NCBI GenBank assembly: GCA_020025575.1
Contig: JAHHRW010000010.1
Span: 250-64,249, forward strand
Source of the DNA: Oscillospiraceae bacterium
GTDB taxonomy: Bacteria > Bacillota > Clostridia > Oscillospirales > Oscillospiraceae
DNA: 64,000 nt
Reading direction: 5' to 3'
Shown: positions 4,968 to 55,872 of the stretch, piece by piece
Position numbering within the stretch: the first letter of the stretch is position 1
Layout of the letters: the number at the start of each line of letters is the position of its first letter
The notes under the pieces: generated by a model
Database searches by the model: none
What the model was told of the DNA's origin: nothing
The model's input: the letters and a program-made list of their open reading frames with translations, nothing else
Translations under genes and position numbers: made by a program

Positions 4968-4996
4968 TTGACAAAAAAGGAAATTCAGCTTATGAT
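4968..4996 (+). promoter_or_regulatory. Sigma-A promoter candidate for the SARP-like regulator
   Basis: TTGACA (4968-4973), 17 nt, TATGAT (4991-4996). CGGAGG RBS precedes the ATG at 5053. Confidence 0.55.
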
Positions 4997-5052: not shown

Positions 5053-6258
5053 ATGGAACAGTCCGTGCCGATATTATATGTAAATATGCTTGGTCGCTTT
5101 GCGATGAGCTATGGGGGTCAACAGATCTCCTTTAAAACGCATACTGCAACAAAATCCCTCAAATTATTGCAGATTCTATTATACACATCTGCAGTAAATG
5201 GTGGGATTTCCCGCTCTCAGCTATTGCAAAATCTGTATTATCAGGAAGAACTCTGTGATCTTGCAAACAATCTGCGTGTCACCGTGCATCGTTTGAAAAA
5301 GCTGTTGCTGCAGGCCGGTCTTCCCGAATACGATTATATTCAGATTGACAACGGCATCTATCGCTGGAACAGTCCCATGCCCACAAAAATCGATGCGATA
5401 GAATTTGAACATCTGGTCAAAGCCGCACAGGAAACATCCGATCCGAAAATACAGGCAGACCTTTGCTGTGAGGCTTGTGCCTTATACCGAGGTGTTTTCC
5501 TTCCGGCACTGTCTGAGGATGACTGGGTAATTGTCAACAGCATCCGGTACAAAAAACTCTATGAATACGCCTTTCTCCAACTTTGCGATTATCTGAAACA
5601 CAACCGGGAATATGAAAAGATTTTAGATATTGCCACCACCGCTGTTCAGATCTATCCTTTTGAAGAATGGCAGGCCATCAAAATGGATGCCTTGATGGCA
5701 CTTAACCGCTACAAGGATGCCCAGCAGTACTACGAAGAAACATCCAAAATGTTTTTTGAGGAACTTGGAATCAGCCCCTCGGAAAAGATGATGAATCTGT
5801 TTGAGGAAATGAGCCTGAAAATGGGCAGAACCCATCAGACAACCAAGGACATCAAAGAGGCACTTTCTCTATCTGATTACAAAACCGGTGCGTTTTATTG
5901 CAATTTGCCGAGTTTTCGTGATAATTACCGTCTTATCCGCCGTTTACTTGACCGAATTGATCTTTCCGTGCAGGTGATGATTTGTTCCCTGACTGACTGT
6001 TGCGGGCGTCCTCTGGAAAATAAGGAAAAACTGGAAGTGCTGTCTGAACATCTGCACAAAGCAATTCGCAGCAGCCTTCGTCGTGGAGACTGTTTTACCC
6101 AATACAGTCCAAGCCAGTTTCTGATTCTGGTAATCGGATCAAATCAAGAAAACTGTCAAATGATTTACAAACGGATTTTAAATCATTTTACACAGGAACA
6201 TAAATCCTGGAAGAAGTATATCGAATACAGTGTTTTTTCCGTATCGGAAAATGAATAA
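5053..6258 (+). CDS. SARP-like transcriptional regulator: winged-helix plus BTAD domain, with a C-terminal degenerate GGDEF-like domain
   Basis: The N-terminus (LGRFAMSYGGQQISF..KSLKLLQILL..LRVTVHRLKK) and the BTAD helices (ACALYRGVFLP..EEWQAIKMDALMAL..YYEETSKMFFEELGISPS) fit SARP. The C-terminus reads RRGDCFTQYSPSQFLILV in register with RxxD-x5-GGDEF. Confidence 0.8.
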   Translation: MEQSVPILYVNMLGRFAMSYGGQQISFKTHTATKSLKLLQILLYTSAVNGGISRSQLLQNLYYQEELCDLANNLRVTVHRLKKLLLQAGLPEYDYIQIDNGIYRWNSPMPTKIDAIEFEHLVKAAQETSDPKIQADLCCEACALYRGVFLPALSEDDWVIVNSIRYKKLYEYAFLQLCDYLKHNREYEKILDIATTAVQIYPFEEWQAIKMDALMALNRYKDAQQYYEETSKMFFEELGISPSEKMMNLFEEMSLKMGRTHQTTKDIKEALSLSDYKTGAFYCNLPSFRDNYRLIRRLLDRIDLSVQVMICSLTDCCGRPLENKEKLEVLSEHLHKAIRSSLRRGDCFTQYSPSQFLILVIGSNQENCQMIYKRILNHFTQEHKSWKKYIEYSVFSVSENE

Positions 6259-6288
6259 ATTTCTGAACCTAGACTTCTTTCTATGCAT

Positions 6289-6326
6289 AAAACCTGAGTT
6301 ATCCACACATGGATAACTCAGGTTTT
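6289..6326. terminator. Bidirectional terminator between the regulator and the pilus operon
   Basis: A 16-bp perfect stem (aaaacctgagttatcc / ggataactcaggtttt) with T-runs on both strands. Confidence 0.7.
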
Positions 6327-6360
6327 GTTTTCTCTCAAATTGATCCTGTGGGGCATGCAA

Positions 6361-6978
6361 TCAGACTGTCTTTTCACAGCGAACAGTCAGACGATTCTGC
6401 CCGCCATATGTGCAGGTGAACAGCGTCATATCGTACTCGCCTGACACCATTTCTTCCACTGACGTTGCAGCCAGAATATCCATTGCCACAACTTTATAGG
6501 TGGTTGCGAAGCCATTTACATCGCGGAAATATACCTCATCTCCAACCTCTATTTGGGGCAGCTGACCAAATCCTCGGTCATAATTATGGCCCATCAGGAC
6601 AAGATCATCCCCGCCTACGGACCCTGTATATCTGCATGGCGTAATCCGCAGATTCTCCATGCTCCATTGTGACATAATCGGCATTTCGATTCTCAGCTTT
6701 GGGATCATCAGATAGCCAATATAATCATGCCCGTCCACAGACAGCGTATTCATAACGGTAGAATAGGGATCTGTCAGATGTTCGGCATTCTCAGATGGGT
6801 TCTGCTCGTCGTAAGCGGATTGATTGGACGCAATCTGTTCCATCAGCCTAGGGAGCAATTCCATTGCAGCCTGTTCTGCCGCTGCAGCCTCCTTCTGATT
6901 GTAGGAAAAAAGCGCCAAAGCAGCCAAAACCAGAACCGACCCTAATCCGATTAAAATATTTGATAAGTTATGTTTCAT
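6361..6978 (-). CDS. Sortase-family cysteine transpeptidase (short form, class not assigned)
   Basis: N-terminal TM segment, LVLMGHNY (His), TLFTCTYGG (Cys), RLTVRC (Arg). Its start overlaps the upstream stop (ATGA). Confidence 0.85.
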   Translation of the reverse strand: MKHNLSNILIGLGSVLVLAALALFSYNQKEAAAAEQAAMELLPRLMEQIASNQSAYDEQNPSENAEHLTDPYSTVMNTLSVDGHDYIGYLMIPKLRIEMPIMSQWSMENLRITPCRYTGSVGGDDLVLMGHNYDRGFGQLPQIEVGDEVYFRDVNGFATTYKVVAMDILAATSVEEMVSGEYDMTLFTCTYGGQNRLTVRCEKTV

Positions 6979-7637
6979 TTTCTTTCACCGAATCGAATCA
7001 GCACTCCGCTCCCGATCAGGAGCAGTCCCAGAATCGCAAGCACCGGGACCGGCAGCTTCAGCTGACCAGTCTGCGGAAGAACCGGATCCTTTGGATGATC
7101 CGTGGGGGGAACTGTCGGAGGGGATGCTGTAAGAACGCCCATCTTAGGGGTTGCATTTACATCATACACATAAGCACCATTTTCCCAATTGGGAACAGCA
7201 ATCAAAAACGGGTCAACGCTATTATACCCCGTCGCAGCCTCATGCTGCGCCACAAGATACAATCCCAGTTGATCGACGCCGACTTCATAGCGCACGGTGC
7301 CGTCATAAATTTTTACAGTCTCGCCTGTAATATTTCTTTTTTCGGCATAATCCAGAAGTGATTCTGCAAGCTCCGGAGAATTTTCATCTTCCAGTGTTTT
7401 ACCCCAGTCTGCAAATGCTCCTGAAGGACGAAAATGGTAGTTCCCATTTGTGCTGACAATCTCGCCGACACGGTAAAATGTCAGGGTTCCAGAGGATAGT
7501 TTCTTTCCGTCGTCCTCCAAATGAACCGTAATCGAACCAGAGTCTTCAAAATCCGGCACATCATGCGCCAAAACAGAAACACTCGTCATGCAAAGCAAAA
7601 GGATCACAAAAAGAAAATTTATCATTCGTTTGCGCAT
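6975..7637 (-). CDS. LPXTG-anchored minor (base-type) pilin
   Basis: AAGGAGG RBS before the ATG at 7637. Signal peptide, LYLVAQHEAATGYNSVDPFLIAVP, and LPQTG plus hydrophobic stretch plus RFGERK sorting signal. Confidence 0.8.
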   Translation of the reverse strand: MRKRMINFLFVILLLCMTSVSVLAHDVPDFEDSGSITVHLEDDGKKLSSGTLTFYRVGEIVSTNGNYHFRPSGAFADWGKTLEDENSPELAESLLDYAEKRNITGETVKIYDGTVRYEVGVDQLGLYLVAQHEAATGYNSVDPFLIAVPNWENGAYVYDVNATPKMGVLTASPPTVPPTDHPKDPVLPQTGQLKLPVPVLAILGLLLIGSGVLIRFGERK

Positions 7638-7650
7638 GGTATTTGCCTCC

Positions 7651-8466
7651 TTATTTTTTCTTATGTTTTGGCAGAGATGCCACAATTACAAGCACCAGCA
7701 AAAACGGTGCTGCAATCACAGCTGCCACAAATTTTGAATCCACCAGCACTGCATCTCCAACTACGTGTGTCTGCGAATCCTCTACATAATCAATCCTCTG
7801 CCCCCGAACCAGAAGGCGGTGGGAATTGATCCCATACGGCGTACATGTAACCAGCGTACAGAGATCTTTTCCATCCTCCGGCATTAGAGACTGCACATTA
7901 TCAGGCTCCACAATCAGAATCTGGTCAACCTGATAGGTCAAAACCTCATCCAATACGCGAATGTGAAAAAGATCCCCTTCTACCATTCGGTCCAGATGCG
8001 TCAGCAGCGTCGCACTGGGCAAGCCTCTGTGCCCGGAAAGAACGCTGTGCGTGCCCGCTCCGCCGATTGGAAGACTGGACCACTCCAAGTGGCCCACCGC
8101 AACCTGAAGGACTGCGTGATCTGTTCCATGGTAAATCGGAAGTTTTACATCAATCGAGGGAATTTCAATATATCCCATAATCCCCGTTCCACCCACGTTC
8201 AACAGGGTCTCATACTGGGCCTTTTGCTCATCGGTGGGCATGAACATATTGTCTCTGTGCTGCTGCGCCTGGTTATAGGCCTCTGCGGCATCCCAAAGCT
8301 CCTGATAACGGTCACTTCCCAGATTCTGAACCTGCTCCTGATAGGATGCAATGGCACGTGATTGGTGTCTTGCATTCCAGAAATCACTGACAGTTGGATA
8401 CAGAAGTAAGGACATGCCAATCAAAAATATGCAAACCAGAAGAATATTGTATAGTCTCTTTTTCAT
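7651..8466 (-). CDS. Class C (pilin-polymerising) sortase
   Basis: TLVTCTPYGINSHRLLVRGQR, SGHRG, and both N- and C-terminal TM segments. RBS GGAGAT precedes the ATG at 8466. Confidence 0.9.
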   Translation of the reverse strand: MKKRLYNILLVCIFLIGMSLLLYPTVSDFWNARHQSRAIASYQEQVQNLGSDRYQELWDAAEAYNQAQQHRDNMFMPTDEQKAQYETLLNVGGTGIMGYIEIPSIDVKLPIYHGTDHAVLQVAVGHLEWSSLPIGGAGTHSVLSGHRGLPSATLLTHLDRMVEGDLFHIRVLDEVLTYQVDQILIVEPDNVQSLMPEDGKDLCTLVTCTPYGINSHRLLVRGQRIDYVEDSQTHVVGDAVLVDSKFVAAVIAAPFLLVLVIVASLPKHKKK

Positions 8467-8539
8467 TGGAATCTCCTTACGCCTGCCCCTTGGGGAGATG
8501 ACTCTCCCCAAGGCCGCAAACTTGCAATAAATATGGATC

Positions 8540-10006
8540 TTATGCGTTGCCGGGGCTGCGCTTCTTCAGCAGCAGCATTGCGCCTGCTACCAGAATCAGA
8601 ATGCCGCCGAGGGCATAGAACATGGTGGTACCAACGCCACCGGTGCTGGGCAGAACAAGACCGGGATGGTTCACAACAGTTGCCTCCAGTGTGCCAGCGG
8701 TATTGTTTCCAGTGAATACAACATTGTCACTTTTCAGTTCAGTCAGCTTGGGTTCATCGGACTGGATATCATGCTCAGCAGTAATGTTGAAAGTGATGGG
8801 CTCCATGGTGTTGTAGCCCTTGGGCGTGGTGGTTTCCTCCAGTCTGTACTCGCCATCATCAATGCCCTTCCAGGTAAAGGTGGTCATCTTGTCACCCTTG
8901 ACTTCTTCACCGACAGGCTGGAAGTCACCATTCTTGTCTTTCTTGTAGAGGGTAAAGCCTGCGCCTTCCAGGGGCTGATCCTCCTCATTAGTCTTGTTGA
9001 CAACTGCCTCATAAGTAAAGACGATAACCTTGTCCTTAGGAGTCTGGCCTACTTTGCCTGTGCCGCTGGGATTTGGGTTGTTGGAGTATTCCAGATAAAC
9101 TTCGTTGGGGTTGCCGGTGGAGCCTACAACTGCCTGCTCATTCAGCTTGGCGGTATAATTCACAGTAATAACAGAACCATTGGTTGCATTGAAAGCTTTG
9201 ACATCGTCACAGGTAATTGTCAGAGTATTACCTGTAGAACCGGGTCCAATTTCAAAGTGTCCTGTAACATCTGTACCATTGAACATGACCTGTGCATCCT
9301 TATTATAGGTCAGGCCGGCAGAGAGCGTGTCGTGGAAAACAATCTTGTAAGATTTGTAGCTGGAAACATTGTCTGCAAGGGTTGCAGTGAGCTGGAAGGG
9401 AACATCGTCGCCGATGTCGTAGTCTGCAGAATCCTGCCAACCGGTGGTAACATTGGTGGAATCATTGGTATCCTGGACCTTCTTCTCAACCTGAGGGACG
9501 CTGGACTTGGGCGTAGCAGATACATTGCCGACAACTTCCATGATGTAGGAAGTGTAAGCATCATTTCCGGAAACGGATTTATCCTTGTCCTTAATCAGAT
9601 AGTAACCGGCTTCCAGATCGCTGATGGTGTAGCTGCCTTCACCTGCAACACTGGGCTTTGCATTTTCCCCATTCAGAAAAGTTTCAAGTTCATTTGCAAA
9701 TGTGCGGGCAGCATCAGAATCGGTGAGTTCTTTTGCTTTGTCAGCTGCCTTACCGAACTTCGTCTCGGCAGCGGTAGTAACACCAGTACCCCACTTGATA
9801 TCAGACAGGACCTTCTCCTGATCTTCATTTTCAAACAGCGTTGCTGCAAAAATCTGATAAGCCTCATAGGTGTGGCCAGGCTGGGCATTCTCGATGGTAA
9901 TGGAGAACTTGGGGGGCTCCGCAGCCGGCATTTCGGCTGCATGGGCAACGATGCCCAGGGTGAAAACCATGGTGAAGACCATGATCATGCTAAGAAAACG
10001 TTTCAT
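8540..10006 (-). CDS. LPXTG-anchored major pilin (isopeptide/Cna-B-type backbone subunit)
   Basis: Signal peptide, E-box-like YRLEETTTPKGY, and LPSTGG plus TM plus KKRSPGNA. The alternative start at 10024 has no RBS; 10006 follows AAAGGAAAG. Confidence 0.85.
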   Translation of the reverse strand: MKRFLSMIMVFTMVFTLGIVAHAAEMPAAEPPKFSITIENAQPGHTYEAYQIFAATLFENEDQEKVLSDIKWGTGVTTAAETKFGKAADKAKELTDSDAARTFANELETFLNGENAKPSVAGEGSYTISDLEAGYYLIKDKDKSVSGNDAYTSYIMEVVGNVSATPKSSVPQVEKKVQDTNDSTNVTTGWQDSADYDIGDDVPFQLTATLADNVSSYKSYKIVFHDTLSAGLTYNKDAQVMFNGTDVTGHFEIGPGSTGNTLTITCDDVKAFNATNGSVITVNYTAKLNEQAVVGSTGNPNEVYLEYSNNPNPSGTGKVGQTPKDKVIVFTYEAVVNKTNEEDQPLEGAGFTLYKKDKNGDFQPVGEEVKGDKMTTFTWKGIDDGEYRLEETTTPKGYNTMEPITFNITAEHDIQSDEPKLTELKSDNVVFTGNNTAGTLEATVVNHPGLVLPSTGGVGTTMFYALGGILILVAGAMLLLKKRSPGNA

Positions 10007-10051
10007 ATCTTTCTTTCCTTTCATCTTATAAATTTCGTGTTGCTACACACA

Positions 10052-13000
10052 TTATTGACTGCACTTTCTTTTCTTGGAGTGGCAATACGCCATCCACATT
10101 GCGCTGCACATGAGAACCAAACCTGCAAGGACATACGGTTCTGTACCGATTCCGCCGGTTTCAGGCAGGCTATCGATGCACAGCTTGTTGGTAATTGTGA
10201 TCGTAAATCCATCCGTCACCGCATGAACCTCCATACCGGAATCAGACTTGTAGGCAACCTGGAACGGCGTTCGGTTCACATACCCCATGGTACCCGGCAG
10301 AATTGGATTGGAATCTTCGTCCAGCTCATACACATAGTATTTCTCTCCCAGATTCAGATCCACAAAAGTGCCCTTCTGATTGGCTGTCGTCTCTGTAAAT
10401 TTCAGCGTAACGATCTGAAGAGGCTTACCCGTTCCCTCTGGATTGTCAAACAGACCAAAGCGGTACTCTCCGGGAATTGGATTGATCGCCGTTCCGTCCA
10501 CATTCTGGAATTGTTTCTCTACCGTAACCTCACCCCTGCTGTTGGGTGCTTTGAAGACATGGATTGCAGAGGCATAGTGAACATGGACACCCTCGGGATA
10601 AGGGGGATATTGGTCGTCCACTTTTTTAGCAACGATGAAGTCGTACGGATCTGCGTCTAAGACATATCCTTCCGGTGCGCGGGTTTCCTGAATACGATAG
10701 ACCGTATTGTATTTCATCGGTTTATCAGAACGATTGTCGGTACCGAAGGTCAGTGTCCCATCACTCCCCGTTGTACCAGTCCAAATTTCCCCATTCCCCT
10801 GGAAGACGCCATTTTCCATGGTGCCCTCTTCCATTTGGAATTGCGCACCGGGAAGGTAATGTGTAATATCGTTTTTATCGTATTTCAGAATCTGAACCTT
10901 AGGTGTTCCGTCGCCTCCGGCCGTGCCGCCAATCGTATAGTGGAAGTTCTCAATGACAACACTGTCACCGCCATTCTGGGAATAGCCCATCCAGTAAGCA
11001 TTGTTTGAAAGCGTAATATGCGTATCCGGAACCGCATGAATGTGGGTGATATAGGTGATTGTCAGCGGCTGATTATCCGGAACCGGAATCATCAGGGTCT
11101 GATTATCGTATGCAGGCTTAACAGGCACTGTCTCATTTGTCCGGGAATTCACGACCCGAATGCTCTCAACGTCCAAACTCAGCGTCTGACTCATCTCATC
11201 CACCAACGTTATGGTATCTCCACCCTTGAGCAAGTCCTCTCCATTGGGATTGACTGCAATTGTAAAGTGGATGGAATTTCCCACTGTGGCAGAAGTTTTA
11301 TCAATAGTCTTGACGGACACCTTGACACCGCTGGACGAGGAATCCATCTGCGTTCCGTCTGTATGCTGAAGGTACACCTGATTGACAAATTCTTTTTCGA
11401 TTCCGCCCTGAAGAACCTCTGGGTCGGTCACGCGGCACACAATTTGAAAGTCCACAGCATAGACATCCATCTCATGTCCTGCCACCAGATTCTCTACTTC
11501 CCACAGCACCTGATCTCCATTGGTGTAGTAGTAGCTGGTCCTGTTTCCCAAATTGGAATCCAGCTCTGCCTGAACAGAATGTTCTGTCCAGCCGGGGCCA
11601 AGCGCTCGCTGATAGTCCGGAATCTGAGCCATCTGAATGCCGCTGTTCCGGGTTTTCTCTCCGATCCACTTCAGCCGGGCAAAGGCAATTTCCATTCCCT
11701 CTGGGATCTGATCCACAACACGGTAACGTCCAGCCAAATCTCCGCCATAATTGACCTTGGATGCCCAAGCAATATAGTGGCCGGGATTTTTAAGCAGAGC
11801 TTTCGGAACATTTCCTAACCTACCCGTCTCAAGATTTGTAATGTTTTTTCCATCAAACTTGAAGAATGTTCCAAATTCTTTCAGAATATTCTGGCCGCCA
11901 TAGAGTACCTTTGTCGCCATTCCATAGTTGACCATCGTATCCTCACTGGAGCCAACATCAAGATAATTGGTATAAAGCTTCTTGGTTCGTGTTCCGCTGG
12001 GCAGAGGATCCGGCTCTGATCTGAGGATCAGGAATACCGATTCGTTGTTCTCAAGGGGGATACTCTTGCGCATTTTCACATAAACCGCGCTATACGTATT
12101 TTCCCGATTAAAGTTCAGTTCGTCCTTATAAGTAATCTCGCAGTAGTCCTCGGTGGAAAGCTGTGACACATGGCCGCTGCCTACCAGAGACTGTACATCT
12201 GCATAATCATTGAACCGAACGCCATCCGGGAGATTCCCTTTATAGATTCCTACGAAGGAGTCGCTGCGGAAATAAATGTTTCCCCGCTCATGGTGTGCAC
12301 CTTCGGTTTTTACGAAATCCTTGATCACAGTTCCCTCATGAAGTTGACTGCCATCAATCTGAATCCCCCAATAAATTGCGCCGTTTGACCAAACGCCTGT
12401 GGATACATTTGGTTTTTGGTAATACCATTCCTTCTTTACGGCTTCGATGGCGTATCCGCCCTGAATGCTGATCTCAGCCTCGGAACTAAAACCACCGATC
12501 TGGAATTTCTCTCCGTCTTTAACAACTGTGCCGACAATATTCGCAGTGTTACTGACGTTCACCTTGTTAATCGTCCCGACATTCACAGCGGATGCGTAGT
12601 AGGTAAATTGATAAGCATAGGTATTATCAGCAAATCCAATATCCGAAAGACGGAGCTGAAAGGCATTCATTCCACCGATCTTGACCCAGTGGGTTTCAAC
12701 CAATGCCCCCAGGGGATCGCTGCCCTCACCTTTGGTGTTAAAGGCATCTACCCGGAGATATCCAGTGTACTGGATATAGTTTTTGCTCAAAGTGTCCTTG
12801 ATCACAGCCTCGGTAATATCCCAATCCCCCAAATGATTAAAGGTAATCGTATAGGGATAGCTGCCGGCAGGAACATTGAAATTCTGGGGTGGATTCGACT
12901 CTGCCACGATCGTACCGCTTGTGGCATCGTATACATTATTCTGAGGAAGATCTACCGTCAGGGCTTCACCCAGCGGATCAGATACATTTTTCTTGATCCA

Positions 13001-15154
13001 GTTCTTATAGCCGAGGTCACAATTATCATTGAAACCCTGGATATAGTCCTTTCCAGGCATCTGCGCATTGTCCGCAGTTGCAACGACTCTGTTTTTCACT
13101 GTTAACAGATCCACATTGGCTGCGCCGAATGCTTTTGCATCCACAATCACATCGTACTGCATACAATACGCTTCTCCGGGAGCCATATCCCCCACGGATA
13201 CGGTGAATTCCTGCCCGTCTTTCGTGTATTGAAGTTTTGGGAAGGAACCATCCGATTTATTCAGTTCCATGGGCGTTCCTTCTGCCTGCTTGGAGTGATA
13301 CAGTTTGAAGGATGCCTCATCATAGCGGATATGAGGCAGTGCCTTTTCATTGGTGATCTTCAGACTGTCCTTCACCTGCACCTCACCGAGAACATGGTTA
13401 TTGCTGCTCGGTGCCTCAAACCATACGGTGTAAGTGATCTTATGGCTGCCATCCTCCGGATTCCGCACCGGGGAACTATGAGATTTCCTCATATCCAGAT
13501 CTACCTGGGGGGTGAAATCTGCAACAGCATCATTCTTTTTATAGGTCTTGCTGTAAACCTTCGCTCTGTTTCGCAGCGGTTCATTGGTAATTTTATCTTC
13601 GTGTTGATCCGACAGCTTGACACGATAGGTCAAAGTGCGCTGCTCATTGGCATTCATATTGCCGATCTTCCAGACGAGACTGCCCGATTTCGCAATATCT
13701 GTTCCATTTTCAGGCGGAATGGGCTGGCTTTCCGTGGGAATACCGCCCTGATATATCCAGCCATGCTCCCTTCCGTCCTGGATTCCCTCTCTGGGAATCC
13801 CCTCCCCGCTCAATCGGGTGGGGATCGGCGTAACGCCCACATATTCCGCATACTCGCCGTTATTTTCAAAATAGTCCACTACCTTTACATCCGGACTGCC
13901 GTCTTCGCCGGCTGTAACCGTCAGCGTATACTCCAGATAGTGAACATCGTTCTCTGAAATTACAGTCTTGGAAACAGACTTCGAGATTTCAAGTTGGCCG
14001 AATTTTGCAATTGAATCGGTATCAAAAGACGGTGTGATATGTACATCCCCAAACACAATGTCCAATGCCCCGTCGTCTGTGGGCACTTCAGAAAGATCGA
14101 TTTCACTTTGTACATAGAACGTTCCGTTCAGGACTCCGTTATTTGTGTCCTGCAAATGCTCCAGCCAGGACTGCTCAAACGTCAGTGTCAACATATGCCC
14201 CGAACTGGTGATGGAGCCAACTGTTGCATGATTTTCGTCTTTGATCTCACCCTGAGCCACAGGGTTGCGCATAATCTTCGGAACCTCAAAACTCAGCTGG
14301 CACCCGCTTGCAATCAATTTAGAAATGGGAACATGCTCGTATTCAATATCCAACCGCAATTTTGCATCGCCGGGAATGTTCACACCTTCCTGCATGTCCT
14401 GCCATTCGGCACCCGAATCACTTGCTTTATCCTTATACCGGAGCCTTGCTTTTTCTACGTATTCGTTCACATCAATCGGAGTCTTTTCTCCCACCAAATC
14501 CGCAGTTTCTTCGTCAGCTGTTTCCACAGGTTCCGCATCCATGATTTCAGATACTGTTTTCTCCGGTTTTGCATCCGTGATTTCAGGTACTGTTTCCTCA
14601 GGTTCCGCATCTGCGAATTCAGAAACGTTTTCCCCGAGAATGACCTGCTCATCGGGAGCCGCAGCCATTGTGGCAGGGACCGTGCTCTCTTGCGGGGTCT
14701 CAGTCAATTCATCCGGTCTGGCCTCAGATTGCTGATTTTCTGTAGCCTGGGTCTGAGGCACAGCGGTGGGCTCTTGTGTCTGCTCAGTCTCCGTTGGAAT
14801 TTCTTCCTGTATTTTTCTGCACGCATCCGCGTGGATATGTTCAGGAATCTGGCAAATCAGCACCTTCTCCGTTTCCTCAACCGCCACCACTTGGGTATCT
14901 TCGGGCACTGTGTTTTGCATCAGCTCTCCATTATCCGCAGGCAGATTTTCCTTTTCCTGCTGATTGCTGGAAAGCTGCGCATAACAGGTATCCGTGTGCT
15001 GGTGTTCCTCCAGACCGCACTTGCTGTCCATTGCAATTGCCGGCAGGGTCAGCGCGCAGATCGTCGAAACCGCTACAACGCACGAAAGCCCCGCTACAAT
15101 CGTCTTCCATGTATATTGATGATTATGATTCTTCCATTTACGCATGGATGTCAC
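10052..15154 (-). CDS. Giant (1700 aa) LPXTG surface adhesin, likely the pilus tip subunit
   Basis: GTG start, N-terminal TM/signal segment, E/P/T-rich repeats, C-terminal Cna-B-like modules (YRIQETRAPEGY), and LPETGG plus TM plus KKRK. Confidence 0.85.
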   Translation of the reverse strand: MTSMRKWKNHNHQYTWKTIVAGLSCVVAVSTICALTLPAIAMDSKCGLEEHQHTDTCYAQLSSNQQEKENLPADNGELMQNTVPEDTQVVAVEETEKVLICQIPEHIHADACRKIQEEIPTETEQTQEPTAVPQTQATENQQSEARPDELTETPQESTVPATMAAAPDEQVILGENVSEFADAEPEETVPEITDAKPEKTVSEIMDAEPVETADEETADLVGEKTPIDVNEYVEKARLRYKDKASDSGAEWQDMQEGVNIPGDAKLRLDIEYEHVPISKLIASGCQLSFEVPKIMRNPVAQGEIKDENHATVGSITSSGHMLTLTFEQSWLEHLQDTNNGVLNGTFYVQSEIDLSEVPTDDGALDIVFGDVHITPSFDTDSIAKFGQLEISKSVSKTVISENDVHYLEYTLTVTAGEDGSPDVKVVDYFENNGEYAEYVGVTPIPTRLSGEGIPREGIQDGREHGWIYQGGIPTESQPIPPENGTDIAKSGSLVWKIGNMNANEQRTLTYRVKLSDQHEDKITNEPLRNRAKVYSKTYKKNDAVADFTPQVDLDMRKSHSSPVRNPEDGSHKITYTVWFEAPSSNNHVLGEVQVKDSLKITNEKALPHIRYDEASFKLYHSKQAEGTPMELNKSDGSFPKLQYTKDGQEFTVSVGDMAPGEAYCMQYDVIVDAKAFGAANVDLLTVKNRVVATADNAQMPGKDYIQGFNDNCDLGYKNWIKKNVSDPLGEALTVDLPQNNVYDATSGTIVAESNPPQNFNVPAGSYPYTITFNHLGDWDITEAVIKDTLSKNYIQYTGYLRVDAFNTKGEGSDPLGALVETHWVKIGGMNAFQLRLSDIGFADNTYAYQFTYYASAVNVGTINKVNVSNTANIVGTVVKDGEKFQIGGFSSEAEISIQGGYAIEAVKKEWYYQKPNVSTGVWSNGAIYWGIQIDGSQLHEGTVIKDFVKTEGAHHERGNIYFRSDSFVGIYKGNLPDGVRFNDYADVQSLVGSGHVSQLSTEDYCEITYKDELNFNRENTYSAVYVKMRKSIPLENNESVFLILRSEPDPLPSGTRTKKLYTNYLDVGSSEDTMVNYGMATKVLYGGQNILKEFGTFFKFDGKNITNLETGRLGNVPKALLKNPGHYIAWASKVNYGGDLAGRYRVVDQIPEGMEIAFARLKWIGEKTRNSGIQMAQIPDYQRALGPGWTEHSVQAELDSNLGNRTSYYYTNGDQVLWEVENLVAGHEMDVYAVDFQIVCRVTDPEVLQGGIEKEFVNQVYLQHTDGTQMDSSSSGVKVSVKTIDKTSATVGNSIHFTIAVNPNGEDLLKGGDTITLVDEMSQTLSLDVESIRVVNSRTNETVPVKPAYDNQTLMIPVPDNQPLTITYITHIHAVPDTHITLSNNAYWMGYSQNGGDSVVIENFHYTIGGTAGGDGTPKVQILKYDKNDITHYLPGAQFQMEEGTMENGVFQGNGEIWTGTTGSDGTLTFGTDNRSDKPMKYNTVYRIQETRAPEGYVLDADPYDFIVAKKVDDQYPPYPEGVHVHYASAIHVFKAPNSRGEVTVEKQFQNVDGTAINPIPGEYRFGLFDNPEGTGKPLQIVTLKFTETTANQKGTFVDLNLGEKYYVYELDEDSNPILPGTMGYVNRTPFQVAYKSDSGMEVHAVTDGFTITITNKLCIDSLPETGGIGTEPYVLAGLVLMCSAMWMAYCHSKKRKCSQ
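14529..14636. repeat. Three tandem 36-bp in-frame repeats inside the adhesin gene
   Basis: Units at 14529-14564, 14565-14600 and 14601-14636 encode VSEFADAEPEET / VPEITDAKPEKT / VSEIMDAEPVET. Confidence 0.8.
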
Positions 15155-15160
15155 CCCTTT

Positions 15161-15757
15161 CTAGCGGATCATGCCAATATTTGCAAACGGCCAAATACGC
15201 CACACTACTTTTCCCACAATTTGTTCCTGGGAAACACAACCGACCGCTGTATTTCTCGAGTCAATCGATGTCTCGCGTTGATCTCCCATCACAAAAAATT
15301 TCCCATCGGGCACTTGATACGGCAATTCAATATTTGTATCACCCAACGCTTGACTGGACAGATACGGCTCTTCCAGCTCAGTCCCGTTGACCGTAACCGT
15401 ACCGGTTTCGTCAATATTGATCCAGTCCCCTGCACGTCCAATCACGCGCTTTACCAGAACTTTATTGTTGTAATAAAATGCGATTACATCTCCCGAATCA
15501 ATATCCGAATTCTTAATCGCAACCGTGATATCCCCGCTTTCCATGGTCGGAGCCATGGACGTTCCGTAAATACGCATTACAGGCAGAAAAAGAGTCGCCA
15601 GCAAAACTGCTGCCGCGGCAACCGTAAGCAGGATATACACGGCTCGTCCCAGCATAGATCGATAGCGGTCTTTATTTTGAACTCTCTTTAATTCTGCCTC
15701 CAGCGCCTCCGTTGTGGGGATTTCGGGAAAATCATGTTTCTTCATAGCATTGCTCAT
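15161..15757 (-). CDS. Signal peptidase I (S26), co-transcribed with the pilus genes
   Basis: GTSMAPT (Ser), LVKRVIG (Lys), GDQRETSIDSR. Only a 6-nt gap separates it from the adhesin gene. Confidence 0.9.
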   Translation of the reverse strand: MSNAMKKHDFPEIPTTEALEAELKRVQNKDRYRSMLGRAVYILLTVAAAAVLLATLFLPVMRIYGTSMAPTMESGDITVAIKNSDIDSGDVIAFYYNNKVLVKRVIGRAGDWINIDETGTVTVNGTELEEPYLSSQALGDTNIELPYQVPDGKFFVMGDQRETSIDSRNTAVGCVSQEQIVGKVVWRIWPFANIGMIR

Positions 15758-15760
15758 TTC

Positions 15761-16177
15761 TTATTCCAGTGGCAGCGCATTTTTCAGGCCTTCCGACACT
15801 TGCTGCACCTGCTGCGCTTTCTGATGGGACGGTTCCCTGTAGGCATCAGCCTGACGCTGCGCATCCAGAATCATTTGCTCGCATTTTTCTTTTGTCCTGC
15901 GTTCCATCTCGGTACAGATGCGTTCCTGCTGTTCGCTGCGCTGCTTTATATTTTCGATGTATTGCTGGCAGGCTGCCTGCGCCGTTTCAAAGACGCCATT
16001 GAGTATCAGGGAGGCCTCTGCAATGGATCCGCAGGTTTCAATCTTGATCTGCCGATTGGCCAGCTGCTGATTTGCAATCTTTAACTCCTGCTGAAGTCGA
16101 TCGATTTCACGATTCTGCTGCAATAAAATATCAAGCAAATCTGCGCGTTTCATTCTCTTTAATTCTTTATCCACCAT
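15761..16177 (-). CDS. Coiled-coil protein of unknown function, first gene of the operon
   Basis: MVDKELKRMKRADLLDILLQQNREIDRLQQEL...; a 3-nt gap to the signal peptidase gene. The track start at 16267 would overlap the predicted -10, so the exact start is uncertain. Confidence 0.55.
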   Translation of the reverse strand: MVDKELKRMKRADLLDILLQQNREIDRLQQELKIANQQLANRQIKIETCGSIAEASLILNGVFETAQAACQQYIENIKQRSEQQERICTEMERRTKEKCEQMILDAQRQADAYREPSHQKAQQVQQVSEGLKNALPLE

Positions 16178-16265
16178 ATCTGCTGTCACCCATATTGTAC
16201 GATTATCGTTTATTTCTGATATTTCTGAATTGCATATTTTCTGATGCCAGGTTAGCGTAAAATGC

Positions 16266-16300
16266 ATTATACTAGATCACCCATTACACAACCCATTACA
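16266..16300 (-). promoter_or_regulatory. Promoter candidate: TATAAT plus two perfect 10-nt direct repeats in the -35 region
   Basis: On the minus strand, TGTAATGGGT occurs at 16300-16291 and at 16288-16279 (12-bp period). Seven nt follow, then TATAAT (16271-16266). Confidence 0.4.
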
Positions 16301-16382
16301 TACGATCATATTATTTGTGTTATGTAAAATTTTTCCTAAAATTTATGATTTTTTCCGAAATGTCCCTGCGACATATGGACAG

Positions 16383-16426
16383 AAAATAAAAACCATTGCA
16401 GCTCAATTTGATACTGCAATGGTTTT
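16383..16426 (-). terminator. Rho-independent terminator after the EAL gene
   Basis: A 13-bp stem (aaaaccattgcag / ctgcaatggtttt), then TTTTTATTTT on the minus strand. Confidence 0.7.
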
Positions 16427-16470
16427 CAATCCATTATGGCATTTCGTATATATGATGCGTCTGAAAAAAA

Positions 16471-18999
16471 TTACTCGGGCAGCTGCCGGGATTCTCCCAC
16501 CATGGTATAGCCAAGGAAATATGCCATTGTTTTGACAAGTTCTTTGGCCATTTCCATATTGCTGGGATTGTCAATTCCAATAAAACCAACGGTTCTATTA
16601 TTCCGGACAATGGGATGTATGATTCTTGGAATTTCCTTTTCCTCATAAACCTGCTCCAGACTGCCTGAGAAATTATTGGGGGATGACTCATGCCCTTCGG
16701 CGCACCATTCCCACGTCAGATTCCACCGGTTGCTGTCACCTTCGGGCTTAAAGATATATGCCCTGTCGCCTTTACATAACGCTATCATAATCTTCAGCAC
16801 CTGATACACCGCCTTCTCCGGGTCCGATGCACTGACCAGAATTTTACAGGAGTCCAGAATGGCCCGTTCAAAACTCAGCCTGTTTTGAATTTCCTGACTC
16901 AAAATCTCTTTTTCCGTAATATCCACAGCGATTTCAACACGTGCCATTTTTCCCTTCCACGGGATCAGCTTGTCTTTCAGCATAAAATGTTTGTTTAGGA
17001 ATTTGTTTTCCTGTTCCCAAATCAGGAACTTGTCTTTGCACAGCCGTGAATTCGTACAGAATTCGCACGGCTCATCTCTGCCTTGCAGAACTTGATAACA
17101 TTTTCTGCCTTTATAGTCATATATGCCTGTCACCCGGCGGCCCGTCCCATTTAGATAGTACAGCTGGTAGGTATCGGTATCACTGACGTAGACAATTTCA
17201 TCCACGCTCTCTGTTATATTACCAACTTCTTCGTTACAGAGCTCCTTCAGCTGTTCCTTACGCTCACTGGACCCCATCGACCGAATATGCGTTTCTTTTT
17301 TGATCCGGTCCCGATAAGCCTCGGAGTTTTTCTGAATATAAGTCTCCTCAAAAGCCTGAACCGTGCATGGCTTGGAAAAGAAAAATCCCTGAAGAATATC
17401 TGTGCGCAGCTCCTGCAGCGCCATGAGCTCTTCGAGAGTCTCCACCCCCTCACAGCAAACATCAATCTTTGCGCTGTGCGCAAGCTCAATCATATTGCTC
17501 AGCAAGCGTAAATTGTAGGCATTGTACTGAATATGCTCGACAAAGCATCTGTCGATTTTCACTTCATCGATTTCAATGCTTTTCAGATAGCGAAGGCTCG
17601 AATATCCCGTGCCAAAATCATCGATGGAAATTCGAATGCCATGCTGTTTCCAAATATAGAAAATCTTGTTGAAATGGGGATAATTCTGGAGTTGGATGGA
17701 CTCTGTCAATTCCAAGGTCAGCGCATCTCCCGGCAAGCCCTCCTTTTTCAGCGTATCAAGCACCATGTCCGTCACACAGTTCTTCTTCAGCTGAACATAG
17801 GACATATTGACGCTCATATGCAAATTCGGGATGTATGCTCTCCACTTCCTGCACTGAGAAATTGCTGTCTCCAAGACCCATTTCCCCACCGCACAAATCA
17901 GGCCTGTCTGCTCCAGAAGGGGAATAAATTCCTCCGGACTGATCCGTCCTCTCGATGGAGATTCATACCGAAGCAGGGCCTCCACCCCATAGAGGCTGAA
18001 GTTCTGTCCATTGACCTGCGGCTGATATTTCAGGCCGAACCCTCTGAAGTGATCCATAATCGACGCTTTCATTTCCGCCACAAGTTCTACCTGTTTCAGA
18101 TTTCTCTGGTAATCGTCTTCAGAGAAGAAAATCATACGATTCCTGCCTTCTCTTTTGGCCTGATCCAAAGCATTTTCTGCATATAGGTACAGCTTGCCGC
18201 TGTCTGTGGCATCCGTATGACGATAGTTCACTACACCAGCGGAAACCGTGCATATCTGCTCCAGCGATTTTTTGATTGTGCTGTAAAATGCAACAACTTC
18301 CTCCCGCTGTTTTTGGATGAGGTTTACGGCAAAGCAATCGCCCTCCAGCCGATACAGTTCCATGGGATATCTTGTATTTTCATCCAAGATATCCGCAACC
18401 CGTTTCAGGATATCATCGCAAAATGGTCTTCCCTGACTGAGATTGAGATTCTTAAAATTATCCAGGTCAAGGATCATCAGGTATCCATCGGATGTCTTAA
18501 GATGCTGGTTCATATCCTCGATCAGTTTCTCCGCACCGCAAAGACCGGTCAGGCCATCGATCATGCCGCCTGTTGCCATTTCCGAAATGCGTCCCACCAG
18601 AAGCAGGGACTGGGTATCCTCTTTTTCCCGAAGTGCACCTTTGACACGGATCCATACCTTGTTCCCAGCACGGTCCAGAATCCGATAAGCAATATTGAAG
18701 GACTTAATTTTCCCCTCAAAAATCAGTTGACGGTAATGATTCATCAAATCCCGATCCTTCGGATAGACAATCCGATCCCAGTCATCAAAGTCGTTGCCGT
18801 CATTTCCTGCCGGTGGAATTGGATACTTTTCGCGAATTTTATCCGTTACAAATACGCGCGATGAAGTCAAATCATAAATGTAGATATATTCTTCCAGACT
18901 ATCATCAAAAAACTGAATCGCCTTGATGTACTGCTGAAGTCTTTCGTGTATGGTTTGATTGCTTTCATTTGCCATACAGTTATTATCTGTGCCTTCCAT
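16471..18999 (-). CDS. c-di-GMP phosphodiesterase: PAS, degenerate GGDEF and EAL domains, plus C-terminal PAS/GAF-like sensor region
   Basis: RLEGDCFAV replaces GGDEF. The EAL set is intact (GVEALLRY, DDFGTGYSSL, EGVET, QGFFFSKP). A Cys-rich CYQVLQGRDEPCEFCTN is present. The ATG at 18999 follows GGAGGGGA; the longer track ORF overlaps the upstream gene. Confidence 0.85.
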   Translation of the reverse strand: MEGTDNNCMANESNQTIHERLQQYIKAIQFFDDSLEEYIYIYDLTSSRVFVTDKIREKYPIPPAGNDGNDFDDWDRIVYPKDRDLMNHYRQLIFEGKIKSFNIAYRILDRAGNKVWIRVKGALREKEDTQSLLLVGRISEMATGGMIDGLTGLCGAEKLIEDMNQHLKTSDGYLMILDLDNFKNLNLSQGRPFCDDILKRVADILDENTRYPMELYRLEGDCFAVNLIQKQREEVVAFYSTIKKSLEQICTVSAGVVNYRHTDATDSGKLYLYAENALDQAKREGRNRMIFFSEDDYQRNLKQVELVAEMKASIMDHFRGFGLKYQPQVNGQNFSLYGVEALLRYESPSRGRISPEEFIPLLEQTGLICAVGKWVLETAISQCRKWRAYIPNLHMSVNMSYVQLKKNCVTDMVLDTLKKEGLPGDALTLELTESIQLQNYPHFNKIFYIWKQHGIRISIDDFGTGYSSLRYLKSIEIDEVKIDRCFVEHIQYNAYNLRLLSNMIELAHSAKIDVCCEGVETLEELMALQELRTDILQGFFFSKPCTVQAFEETYIQKNSEAYRDRIKKETHIRSMGSSERKEQLKELCNEEVGNITESVDEIVYVSDTDTYQLYYLNGTGRRVTGIYDYKGRKCYQVLQGRDEPCEFCTNSRLCKDKFLIWEQENKFLNKHFMLKDKLIPWKGKMARVEIAVDITEKEILSQEIQNRLSFERAILDSCKILVSASDPEKAVYQVLKIMIALCKGDRAYIFKPEGDSNRWNLTWEWCAEGHESSPNNFSGSLEQVYEEKEIPRIIHPIVRNNRTVGFIGIDNPSNMEMAKELVKTMAYFLGYTMVGESRQLPE

Positions 19000-19051
19000 T
19001 CGCTTCCCCTCCGATAACAATTTGCAGGTATGTGCATGTTTCCAGAAATTG

Positions 19052-21313
19052 TTACGACTGCCACATTTCTTCTGAGTGACGATCTTCCTGGTAGTGCTGA
19101 TATCCGTTTTTGGTTTTCTTTTTGACCTGATACAGTGCAATGTCGGCTTTTTGATACAGTTCCACAAAGGAGTGTCCGTCAACCGGTGCCCAAGTAACGC
19201 CGACAGACGCGGACAGGGTAACTTCCTTTCCATCTTGGCCATATGTTTTGTGGATCATCTGGCAAAGTTCCTGAATCAAAGACTCCGCATACTGATAAGA
19301 TCTGATATTGCGCAGAAGAATTACAAACTCATCTCCGCCCATTCTTCCGATGATATCACTGGAGCGGAACCGTTTCTGAAGCATATGCGCCACATCTATC
19401 AGCACCTGATCTCCGCAGGTATGCCCAAACGTATCATTGATCTGCTTATAATTGTCAAGGTCAAACAGAATAAACACCTGTTTTTCATCCGTCAGATATC
19501 CATAAGCCAGCGCCCCTTCTATCTTCTTGCGGGTCGTTGCCGCATTGTACAGCCCCGTCAGGCCGTCTCGCTCTGCCTGCTGCTGCAATGCGATTTCTTT
19601 TCGTTTCTGTCGGTCAACATCCTGAAAAATCAAAATGATTTTTGAATGCTTTGTCGGATGAGCGTATCCGATACAGGTCACCCACTTGCGTTTTCCATCC
19701 AACTCCATCATAAAATAAAATTGTACGGAATCCATGCCTTTACGGAACTTGCTCCTCAGGTTTTCAAGCCCAAGCTTTTTGGAAACAGATTTTCTGTCGC
19801 TCCCACGAACCCGACTGATGATTTTTTCATCCAGAAATTCTGTATATGGACCTTGGCACTCTTTTCCATTCATCTCCAGCAAGCACCCGGTGTCGAGATC
19901 CACCTTTACAACCAACAGTGCCTTTGCTATCAGCGCATCCTGAAATTCGAGCTTTCGGCTCGACTGCTGTTCTATTCTTTTCAGCTCTGTAATATCTTCC
20001 AGAAATCCCACCGTACCGATGATCTTCTGGGATTCATAGACATTGTGCAGCGAGATCCGGCACCACGTGACATCCTGGCCATTGTTGATCTGTACATCGG
20101 CTTTTGCCGATTGCTGGGTTCTTATGGTGGTAAACAGATTCATAAAATCACCGATGCTTTGCGGTGCTATGATTCCCCGCTCTACAAAGCTTTCGGGGGG
20201 TATGCTTTCTGAAATTCCCTGAAACAGCGGATTGGGGAAATCTGTTTTCAATGTCAATTCTCCACATACCTGATCGTATTCAAAGATCGGCTGTTTGGAA
20301 TATTCCAGCGCAATATGGAGAATCTCTATGTTGTTGCTTACCTCAAGATGGGCCTGCTTGATTTCCCTGTTTGTTTTTCGAAAATACCTAACAACACAGG
20401 CCACCCAGACCAAGTAACATACACTTAAGAAAATCGTGTGTTTGGCATCCATGCGAAAAATACTGTTCAGAGTTTCCCCTAAAGAAGTATCTTCCATGGT
20501 GTAGACAACCTGCCAGTTTCGTGTGCCGATGGGCATGTAACAGCCGTAGCGGTTGTGCCCATTTTCGCTGAAAGAAAAATCGCCTTCTCTTCTCTGTGCA
20601 AAGTCCTCTTTGATTTTCGAAATATCCTTGTCGATATTTGTGAGCGTTTCCAGATCATCCCAGAAGTTCAGATACTCACTTTCACCTGTTTCAAGCTGAA
20701 AGATGCCAATATAATTGCCATTTGAATCTACAATATAGAGATTCCCATCTGTTTTCATATACTTTTTTCGGATGGCCTCATTGAGATGCTCCAGATCAAT
20801 CACCCCTAAGACGGCACCCTTAACCTGATGGTCCTCCCCCCAGATTGGACAGGCAAAAATCTGAACATACCGCCCCGGCATTACCTTAGACGGATAGACC
20901 TCTGAAAAAGCGACGGTTCCATCCATAACCGTTTGAAAATACTCTTGATCTGCTGTGTTGAGTAAGGTGCCGACATGGCTGTATCCCCTGCCATTCTGAT
21001 CGACCACCGAAGTAAATGTAAACGCATCCATACGATTTGCAATTTCAAGGACATCCTGAACTTCCGGGTCCCATATTGAGTCATACTCTGCAATCACTTC
21101 CGCCGTCCCCCGCAAATTATGGACAAGCGCACCGATATAAGATGACGTATTTTCCAGCCTTATCTTGGTATGCTCGCGAACTGATTCCTTAAAATTCTGC
21201 ATTTCTATTTGCTCAATGGCACTTCGATAGTAAAAAAACGACAGTACAATACCGGCCACGGATAACGCAAGCAAAGCACAAACCGCAATATTCTTCTTAA
21301 TTCTTGTTATCAT
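19052..21313 (-). CDS. Membrane sensor diguanylate cyclase: extracellular Cache-like domain, TM, PAS, GGDEF
   Basis: An N-terminal TM and a second TM near residue 300, GGDEFVILL, and I-site RSSD five residues upstream. AGGAAGGAG RBS. Confidence 0.85.
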   Translation of the reverse strand: MITRIKKNIAVCALLALSVAGIVLSFFYYRSAIEQIEMQNFKESVREHTKIRLENTSSYIGALVHNLRGTAEVIAEYDSIWDPEVQDVLEIANRMDAFTFTSVVDQNGRGYSHVGTLLNTADQEYFQTVMDGTVAFSEVYPSKVMPGRYVQIFACPIWGEDHQVKGAVLGVIDLEHLNEAIRKKYMKTDGNLYIVDSNGNYIGIFQLETGESEYLNFWDDLETLTNIDKDISKIKEDFAQRREGDFSFSENGHNRYGCYMPIGTRNWQVVYTMEDTSLGETLNSIFRMDAKHTIFLSVCYLVWVACVVRYFRKTNREIKQAHLEVSNNIEILHIALEYSKQPIFEYDQVCGELTLKTDFPNPLFQGISESIPPESFVERGIIAPQSIGDFMNLFTTIRTQQSAKADVQINNGQDVTWCRISLHNVYESQKIIGTVGFLEDITELKRIEQQSSRKLEFQDALIAKALLVVKVDLDTGCLLEMNGKECQGPYTEFLDEKIISRVRGSDRKSVSKKLGLENLRSKFRKGMDSVQFYFMMELDGKRKWVTCIGYAHPTKHSKIILIFQDVDRQKRKEIALQQQAERDGLTGLYNAATTRKKIEGALAYGYLTDEKQVFILFDLDNYKQINDTFGHTCGDQVLIDVAHMLQKRFRSSDIIGRMGGDEFVILLRNIRSYQYAESLIQELCQMIHKTYGQDGKEVTLSASVGVTWAPVDGHSFVELYQKADIALYQVKKKTKNGYQHYQEDRHSEEMWQS

Positions 21314-55768: not shown

Positions 55769-55872
55769 GGCGCAGCGGGTGCGGAAACCCTATCGCGGAC
55801 AAAATCCTTCGTCTGCCAGACAACTCCCCATTTTGGCAGCACTTCACGCAGGGAACCCTGCTCTGTTCTTGG
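55769..55872 (-). promoter_or_regulatory. THF (tetrahydrofolate) riboswitch aptamer upstream of folC
   Basis: On the minus strand: ACAGAGCAG..CUGCGUGAAGUG-CUGCCA..AUGGGGAG..UGGCAG-ACGAAGG..CCGCG..GCACCCGCUGC. This matches the conserved blocks of the THF-I class as I remember them from the E. siraeum aptamer (AGAGUAG, GCGUUAAGUG, AUGGGA, ACGAAG, GCAUCCGCU). Confidence 0.75.

Follow-up and report, generated by a model that had tools for sequence, protein, structure and literature searches.

A SARP-type regulator with a degenerate GGDEF-like domain that keeps the I-site residues: a candidate c-di-GMP-responsive activator of sortase pili in gut Clostridia

The stretch of DNA analysed here (the window; 64,000 nucleotides (nt) of an Oscillospiraceae bacterium, assembly GCA_020025575.1, contig JAHHRW010000010.1) carries a regulator gene at 5053..6258 (+), an open reading frame (ORF) of 401 amino acids (aa) in which a SARP module is joined to a degenerate GGDEF-like domain. 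The gene is convergent to a sortase-pilus operon (6361..16267, −), recognised by its Pfam Sortase, GramPos_pilinBB, SpaA, LPXTG anchor and Peptidase_S26 domains, and beyond the operon lie an EAL-domain gene and a diguanylate cyclase gene, which is the layout described in the original prediction for this DNA. The operon encodes p168, an S26 signal peptidase, a 1700-aa SpaA-type tip adhesin, a backbone pilin, a class C-type sortase, a 236-aa protein and a second sortase. A candidate sigma-70-type promoter for the regulator (TTGACA-17-TATGAT; 4968..4996, +), located by a consensus scan only and matching at 11/12 positions, is 57 nt 5′ of the ATG at 5053.

The regulator begins with an OmpR/PhoB-type winged-helix DNA-binding domain (residues 1-105; 5053..5367, +), identified from the structural model, from Foldseek matches and from PF00486, which is precomputed on many of the homologues. 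In the full-length AlphaFold2 model (33 homologues; predicted local distance difference test score, pLDDT, 81.9) this domain has a strand-helix-helix-helix-hairpin order over residues 8-105, and by sequence it gives a weak match to the DNA-binding domain of SaeR. The recognition helix reads N72-N-L-R-V-T-V-H-R-L-K-K83; residues N72, L74, R75, V76, T77, R80 and L81 are invariant in the family alignment (A1), giving a helix pattern of NNLRVTxxRL. A BTAD domain follows at residues 113-252 (5389..5808, +; Pfam PF03704, E=2e-14, 54.6 bits vs a cutoff of 22.1), and then a flexible linker at residues 259-278 (5827..5886, +), where pLDDT is <50. When the full-length model was compared with PDB structures by Foldseek, EmbR (2ff4/2fez) came first (E about 4e-10), followed by the SARP domain of AfsR (8k60/8hvr; about 1e-8). 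The EmbR and AfsR matches span about 260-330 columns, with E values of 4e-10 to 5e-8, and GGDEF domains rank after them. The BTAD match, together with the structural similarity to EmbR and AfsR, identifies the first 255 residues as a bona fide SARP module, in agreement with the winged helix plus BTAD arrangement assigned earlier to residues 1-250. The 510 homologues of the regulator found at E<=1e-3 carry source names of AfsR/SARP or BTAD regulators only.

The remaining part of the protein, residues 279-397 (5887..6243, +), is a truncated, catalytically dead GGDEF-like domain, detected by modelling, by Foldseek and by a profile search against PDB sequences. Its core of about 120 aa is laid out as helix-strand-helix-hairpin-helix-strand. 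The model of the C-terminal domain has a pLDDT of 86.5 and a predicted template modelling (TM) score, pTM, of 0.78, and its top 31 Foldseek matches in the PDB are all diguanylate cyclases, with probability 1.00 and TM scores of 0.5-0.68. The best of them is 6khu (E=1.9e-5, root-mean-square deviation 2.8 Å over 117 columns, TM 0.62/0.66). A profile of the C-terminal domain family (A2, an alignment of 21 sequences), when run against PDB sequences, gave diguanylate cyclases as its ten best matches, with 4urg first at E=2.5e-4. The original prediction had placed a GGDEF fold at residues 278-395, and its coordinates are exact (nt 5884-6237 for those residues, 6079-6090 for RRGD and 6106-6120 for SPSQF). 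It had also proposed hidden Markov model (HMM) and structural analysis of this region: the structural side gives a predicted GGDEF fold, and the HMM side, run on the single sequence, stays below the Pfam threshold.

The decay of the catalytic features is extensive. S352-P-S-Q-F356 (6106..6120, +) stands in place of the GG(D/E)EF active site, as had been proposed, and aligns with the GGDEF/GGEEF motifs of the PDB cyclases. Conservation was counted over the window protein plus its 150 best representatives (one per cluster at 50% identity; n=151); the SPSQF positions are moderately conserved and GG(D/E)EF is found in none of the aligned representatives. The domain lacks the FKxIN segment after strand 1 as well as the C-terminal helix and strand, and HMM alignment places a six-residue deletion at the FKxIN position, which removes the guanine-binding Asn. 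The same alignment puts S312 at the first metal-binding Asp position and pairs D315-x-x-G318 with the 'D..GH' motif. The earlier reading set MICSLTD in place of the DxD strand; the residue that aligns with the first metal-binding Asp is S312, not the 'TD'. With SPSQF at the motif, S312 at the Asp position and the Asn region deleted, the protein cannot be a cyclase.

Beside these losses, an RxxD motif of the inhibitory site (I-site) is kept. R343-R-G-D346 (6079..6090, +) lies exactly five residues before the SPSQF position, the canonical I-site register that had been noted at the outset: RRGD, CFTQY and SPSQF correspond in turn to RSSD, IIGRM and GGDEF of the neighbouring cyclase. In PleD, the I-site is made up of R359 and D362 (the RxxD motif) and R390 of one domain, together with R313 of the adjacent domain (PMC7288161). 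R374 (6172..6174, +) is the counterpart of R390 by both offset and alignment: it is found 18 residues after the motif Phe, F356, an offset equal to that in PleD (F372 to R390) and in 3ign, and in the profile alignment it pairs with the 'ERI' Arg of 4urg and 3ign. R301 (5953..5955, +), which pairs with the Arg of 'AKREG' in TM1788, is a candidate counterpart of the secondary I-site Arg, PleD R313, for which R297 is an alternative.

These residues are among the most conserved of the whole protein. The C-terminal profile, searched against 1.84 billion representative proteins (E<=1e-3), matched 2316 clusters at 50% identity, and since nearly all of these are about 400 aa in length with the domain at residues 260-400, the SARP-GGDEF-like regulators are a large family of a single architecture. 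Among the 151 sequences, D346 is conserved in 150, R343 in 149, R374 in 145 and R301 in 143. A ranking of all 401 positions, using the 93 full-length representatives only, has D346 first (100%), R343 second (98.9%), R301 third (98.9%), R374 eighth and R297 twelfth. The motif is not a remnant left by chance, and the GGDEF fold does not itself require it: of 12 distinct genuine GGDEF domains taken from the window and related loci, RxxD occurs in 5 and is missing from 7. The I-site residues are thus at the top of the conservation ranking in a domain whose catalytic features have decayed, and this is the strongest argument for a functional pocket, for which cyclic di-GMP (c-di-GMP) would be the simplest ligand.

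Loci encoding relatives of the regulator were collected by exact-protein look-ups and by a scan of 185,579 species genomes, and the hosts of the family include Blautia, Fusicatenibacter, Coprococcus, Eubacterium ramulus, Faecalicatena, Lacrimispora, Faecousia and others. In the window's own clade, Faecousia and other Oscillospiraceae (67-86% identity), the regulator gene faces the 3′ end of the same pilus operon in convergent orientation. In the Lachnospiraceae (44-60% identity; Blautia, Fusicatenibacter, Coprococcus, Eubacterium ramulus, Faecalicatena and others) the genes are co-directional, in the order regulator, p149, p70, giant SpaA/VWA adhesin, pilin and two sortases. A pilus gene set matching that of the window is present in loci L001, L003, L011, L013-15, L028 and L065. 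Homologues of pilin or sortase genes occur in 37 of the 51 loci that have at least 9 kb downstream, and in at least four further loci a giant signal-peptide ORF follows the promoter box (described below) and is cut by the end of the locus. The co-occurrence with pili that the original prediction proposed to measure is seen in at least 37/51 loci, in two gene orders and with a shared promoter box.

The promoter of the pilus operon has a good −10 element and no −35 element. A tandem direct repeat with a 12-bp period, TGTAATGGG-N3-TGTAATGGG (16280..16300, −), overlaps the −35 position and is a putative SARP box; the TATAAT −10 hexamer (16266..16271, −) is found at a fixed 8-10 nt past the second repeat. 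In the window the minus strand from 16300 to 16266 reads TGTAATGGGT-TG-TGTAATGGGT-GATCTAG-TATAAT, or, written as spaced, TGTAATGGG-N3-TGTAATGGG-N8-TATAAT, with 17 bp from the start of the downstream repeat to the start of the −10. The box has the formula TGTAATG-N5-TGTAATGG-N9-TAnAAT and the consensus TGTAATGnTTTnTGTAATGG-N9-TAnAAT. It was detected in 47 of 90 related loci, and with at most one mismatch allowed in the 14 repeat positions there were 49 matches vs 0.46 expected, nearly every one of which points at pilus genes. TAnAAT stands at a constant offset in 42 unique sites, where the repeats are kept and the spacer between them varies. In the Lachnospiraceae the box lies between p149 and p70. 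The two copies of TGTAATGGG are the only exact ones in the 64-kb window, and the box occurs there once.

Known SARP boxes are direct repeats that overlap the −35 region and whose 3′ repeat is separated from the −10 by 8 bp, and they are bound by side-by-side dimers (PMC10936776). The invariant recognition helix, NNLRVTxxRL, is paired here with an invariant operator repeat, and the regulator is predicted to bind the TGTAATG box. Taken with the linkage to pili, this makes it very probable that the regulator is a locus-specific activator of the sortase-pilus operon. Chance adjacency to pili was rejected, being made unlikely by the conserved box and by a linkage that persists through rearrangement. 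It is also highly improbable that this is an orphan regulator that merely sits beside the operon, with its targets elsewhere and the box belonging to another factor. Such a reading could draw on the position of the gene, which in the window faces the 3′ end of the operon and is some 10 kb away from its promoter, and on binding of the box by the regulator being a prediction; set against this are the association of the regulator with the box and the pilus genes, which holds in both Oscillospiraceae and Lachnospiraceae through a change of gene order, the SARP-type architecture of the box, its single occurrence in the window, and the invariance of both the recognition helix and the repeat.

Two observations concern the box region itself. 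The listed ATG of p168 (15761..16267, −) overlaps the TATAAT hexamer; the true start is probably M31 (nt 16177), since the homologues in L001 and L003 are 137-138 aa in length. In some loci (L016, 13265-15716; L067, 12076-14454) p149 and the box are separated by an insertion of duplicated genes, which encode 308-364 aa and have near-identical N-termini. These are possibly mobile-element genes, and inserts of this type move the box 4-5 kb from the regulator.

The c-di-GMP enzymes of the window lie on the far side of the pilus operon. One gene (16471..19242, −) encodes a protein with a PAS domain, a degenerate GGDEF domain (LEGDCF) and an EAL domain (Pfam EAL E=1.5e-60, GGDEF E=1.5e-17, PAS_3). 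Its EAL, DDFGTG and EGVE motifs are intact, and it is probably a c-di-GMP phosphodiesterase. The other (19052..21313, −) encodes a dCache-GGDEF diguanylate cyclase with an RSSD-x5-GGDEF arrangement (Pfam GGDEF E=9.7e-41, dCache_1 E=3.6e-21). Both the window and L003/L015 (67% identical) have a GGDEF-EAL gene directly before the pilus operon. In L020, L025 and L026 the gene immediately upstream of the regulator, on the same strand, encodes a large, intact GGDEF protein, and in L084-87, which belong to one Lachnospiraceae clade, GGDEF proteins of about 240 aa with a degenerate NGGNKF motif (about 9030-9780, −) adjoin the regulator upstream in divergent orientation. GGDEF or EAL genes are also found within 10 kb in L007/8, L018, L029, L036, L063 and L075. 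In total, genes of these types are near the regulator in 12 of 80 genome loci, and immediately adjacent in 7. The linkage to c-di-GMP genes suggested by the original prediction recurs in several independent arrangements and is confined to this minority of loci, a patchiness compatible with a diffusible messenger without being proof of one.

The same distribution bears on the identity of the ligand. The SARP activator could hold some other nucleotide in its pocket, such as pGpG, GTP, (p)ppGpp, cyclic GMP-AMP (cGAMP) or cyclic di-AMP (c-di-AMP). Degenerate GGDEF domains with other ligands are known from CC3396, which senses GTP, and YybT, which has ATPase activity (PMC7288161), and these precedents count in favour of the idea, together with the further family-specific invariant residues around the site and the many loci, most of the set, that have no c-di-GMP enzyme gene nearby. 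Alternative ligands, however, use the active site (A-site), which is destroyed here, and an RxxD motif combined with an Arg pocket is known in characterised proteins only as a c-di-GMP site (PMC7288161). GGDEF/EAL genes are, in addition, the only nucleotide-signalling genes observed beside these loci, and recurrently so. Another nucleotide in the pocket is on this evidence improbable.

A protein partner for the GGDEF-like domain has to be considered as well. In Lachnospiraceae the regulator is accompanied by p149, directly behind it, and by p70, which opens the row of genes past the box, a pattern present in 72 of the 90 loci; in Blautia producta these two small, uncharacterised proteins are encoded at 11285-11734 and 11945-12157 of locus L004. 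They have a common C-terminal motif, RQNATWQG...W.E...F.S.LEL.KLID, and a p149-like domain is fused to the C-terminus of the regulator in P0138 (582 aa), P0243 (549 aa) and P0252. A search of PDB sequences with the p149 profile gave no relative, and no Pfam family was found for p149, p70, p168 or p236. Homologues of p149 or p70 were found neither in the window nor in its Oscillospiraceae relatives, and a search of the window for the QNATWQG motif was negative.

These observations would suit a SARP pilus activator whose GGDEF-like domain binds no nucleotide and serves for dimerisation or for contacts with other proteins (p149/p70 or RNA polymerase), the conserved Arg and Asp residues being engaged in salt bridges. 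The fusion of a p149-like domain after the GGDEF-like domain and the position of p149 and p70 in the majority of loci both speak for it, and the domain is truncated and weakly GGDEF-like by sequence; GGDEF domains are known to bind proteins, and SiaD-SiaC (7e6g) is among the fold matches. The window and the Oscillospiraceae relatives, however, have no p149 or p70 and still keep R343, D346, R374 and R301, which argues that the function of these four residues is independent of the two partners. A repurposed interface would also not predict that highly conserved residues fall in register with the four I-site residues. We therefore consider a purely protein-binding role rather unlikely.

The explanation that we favour, by a little over even chances, is that c-di-GMP gates this SARP activator of sortase pili by binding at the retained I-site. 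In this scheme, the winged helix and BTAD domain would bind the two TGTAATG direct repeats, with their 12-bp period, as a side-by-side dimer, by analogy to AfsR, and the box-bound regulator would recruit RNA polymerase to the pilus promoter. Extra C-terminal domains are known to modulate SARP activity (PMC10936776), and, by analogy to AfsR and EmbR, the C-terminal domain would be the regulatory input. R343, D346, R374 and probably R301 would bind c-di-GMP, likely as an intercalated dimer linking two GGDEF domains as in PleD and WspR. Binding might then promote or stabilise the active SARP dimer, and high c-di-GMP might switch pilus expression on; both the dimerisation step and the sign of the response are conjectural. 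Of the two neighbouring enzymes in the window, the dCache-GGDEF cyclase would supply the signal and the PAS-GGDEF-EAL phosphodiesterase would degrade it and so reset the system.

Several points weigh against this explanation. The single-sequence scores of the domain against PF00990 are 18.0 and 19.9 bits, short of the gathering score of 23.8; the regulator likewise falls below the TIGR00254 threshold (12.5 vs 37.4), and there is no precomputed GGDEF annotation among the 120 regulator homologues listed. An hhalign comparison of the A2 profile with A3, an alignment of 11 genuine GGDEF domains drawn from the window and related loci, returned E=0.15 at low probability, too weak a match to carry weight; the register was as expected and the alignments are shallow. 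The domain is shorter by about 40 residues than every characterised I-site receptor, and the family-specific invariants F288, R297, Y351, Q355 and C368 correspond to no I-site residue and could form a different pocket. The repeat period of the pilus promoter is 12 bp, vs the 11 or 22 bp typical of SARP boxes, and 68 of the 80 genome loci have no GGDEF or EAL gene within 10 kb. Since in Lachnospiraceae the regulator travels with p149 and p70 and is sometimes fused to a domain like the former, the GGDEF-like domain may also have a protein partner besides, or instead of, a nucleotide. Given these points, sensing of c-di-GMP by the regulator is plausible, and we lean slightly towards it on the strength of the retained residues. 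The more detailed proposal is tentative and falls a little short of an even chance: that these proteins are a new class in which an I-site c-di-GMP dimer bridges two truncated GGDEF domains and so builds the SARP dimer, acting as a master switch for sortase pili and giant adhesins in gut Lachnospiraceae and Oscillospiraceae.

If c-di-GMP does control these pili, then a protein receptor is needed, because an Rfam scan found no c-di-GMP-I or c-di-GMP-II riboswitch in the whole window. On the same result, riboswitch control of the window's pilus operon is not supported. The sole Rfam match in the window is a tetrahydrofolate (THF) riboswitch at 55771-55867 (−), far from the operon, which scored 75.3 bits vs a gathering threshold of 36.

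Among known systems, PelD of P. aeruginosa and PopA of C. crescentus resemble the regulator in having an inactive A-site, an RxxD motif five residues upstream, an Arg of the PleD R390 type and a role as sensors. Further degenerate-GGDEF receptors that bind c-di-GMP at the I-site are YdaK of B. subtilis and PssE of L. monocytogenes. The output of receptors of the PelD/PopA type is a polysaccharide synthase partner, a protease adaptor or a membrane complex, whereas here it would be a SARP DNA-binding module; the regulator differs also in its truncated core of about 120 aa, which is below the Pfam threshold, and in that c-di-GMP binding is in its case a prediction. EmbR of M. tuberculosis (SARP plus FHA) and AfsR of Streptomyces (SARP plus NOD plus TPR) share the SARP core, tandem repeats over the −35 and an appended modulating domain (PMC10936776). 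Compared with them, the regulator has a GGDEF-like sensor in place of FHA or NOD-TPR, is found in gut Clostridia rather than Actinobacteria, has a pilus target rather than antibiotic or cell-wall genes, and has a box of 12-bp rather than 11-bp period.

The proposed logic is like that of BldD and VpsT, which dimerise with c-di-GMP, and of FleQ, MrkH, Clp and CuxR, which sense it in other ways: oligomers of c-di-GMP hold two protomers together and in this way govern DNA binding or the activation of adhesion and biofilm genes (PMC4151990, PMC12564702). None of these six is a SARP or senses c-di-GMP by a GGDEF I-site, and neither SARPs nor sortases are mentioned in a 2025 review of c-di-GMP effectors. 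Sortase pili of Gram-positive bacteria are under locus-encoded positive regulators, namely RlrA, EbpR, RogB/RofA-like and AraC-type proteins, which, like the regulator described here, are found beside the sortase-pilus island; they belong to protein families other than its own. We know of no second-messenger input for any of these. In Clostridia, the control of surface structures by c-di-GMP has so far been explained mostly by riboswitches; to our knowledge, protein receptors for c-di-GMP are scarce in this group, and none links the messenger to sortase-assembled pili. The original prediction could name no characterised SARP-GGDEF effector of sortase pili, and our literature searches likewise returned no SARP/BTAD-GGDEF effector and no regulator tying c-di-GMP to sortase pili. 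Degenerate-GGDEF I-site receptors and SARPs with sensor domains are thus both known; what is new in the literature searched is their fusion, the pilus target and the gut-Clostridia hosts.

If the more detailed proposal of a bridged dimer is correct, no protein receptor for c-di-GMP that controls sortase pili and no SARP under the control of a second messenger would have been described before this regulator. The SARP family would also gain a new type of sensor. If it reads c-di-GMP, there would be a testable route from environmental sensing by dCache to adhesion in abundant gut commensals. Together, the regulator and its box would offer engineers a defined operator-regulator pair. GGDEF remnants that retain only the I-site can hide below Pfam thresholds and are for that reason undercounted in censuses of c-di-GMP receptors.

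Other features of the window and of the related loci are as follows. A hairpin with a 19-bp stem followed by a T run (6287..6328) separates the convergent regulator and sortase genes and is probably a bidirectional terminator of both. A second hairpin with a T run, 3′ of the phosphodiesterase gene (16381..16427, −; aaaaccattgcag...ctgcaatggttttt-atttt), was recognised by reading the sequence; it is probably a terminator, and its position after that gene would mean that the pilus operon has its own promoter. With its listed start, the PAS-GGDEF-EAL ORF shares 190 nt with the 3′ end of the cyclase gene. Translation probably begins instead at M82 (nt 18999), which lies about 50 nt past the cyclase stop, and from this start the cyclase and EAL genes would be a tandem pair with a hairpin terminator just before the pilus promoter.

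In B. producta, a gene for a PilJ-type pilin (N_methyl plus PilJ_C; L004, 8992-9813), a type IV pilus gene, directly precedes the regulator. The corresponding upstream region in Blautia sp. An81 (L007, 4804-9709) holds a T2SSE/T2SSF cluster and a GGDEF gene, and the downstream cargo consists of a giant VWA protein and, after it, several proteins that are about 200 aa long and lack a confident Pfam match. At the left end of the window, an ORF at 292-1818 (+) encodes a protein of 508 aa in which an AAA_13 ATPase is joined to a C-terminal Peptidase_S24 domain (LexA/UmuD-like), an unusual fusion that might be phage-defence or SOS-linked. An ORF with a GTG start at 4194-4718 (+) encodes a UTRA effector domain only (E=1e-30), without the GntR helix-turn-helix, and may be a truncated GntR/HutC regulator or the result of a mis-called start.

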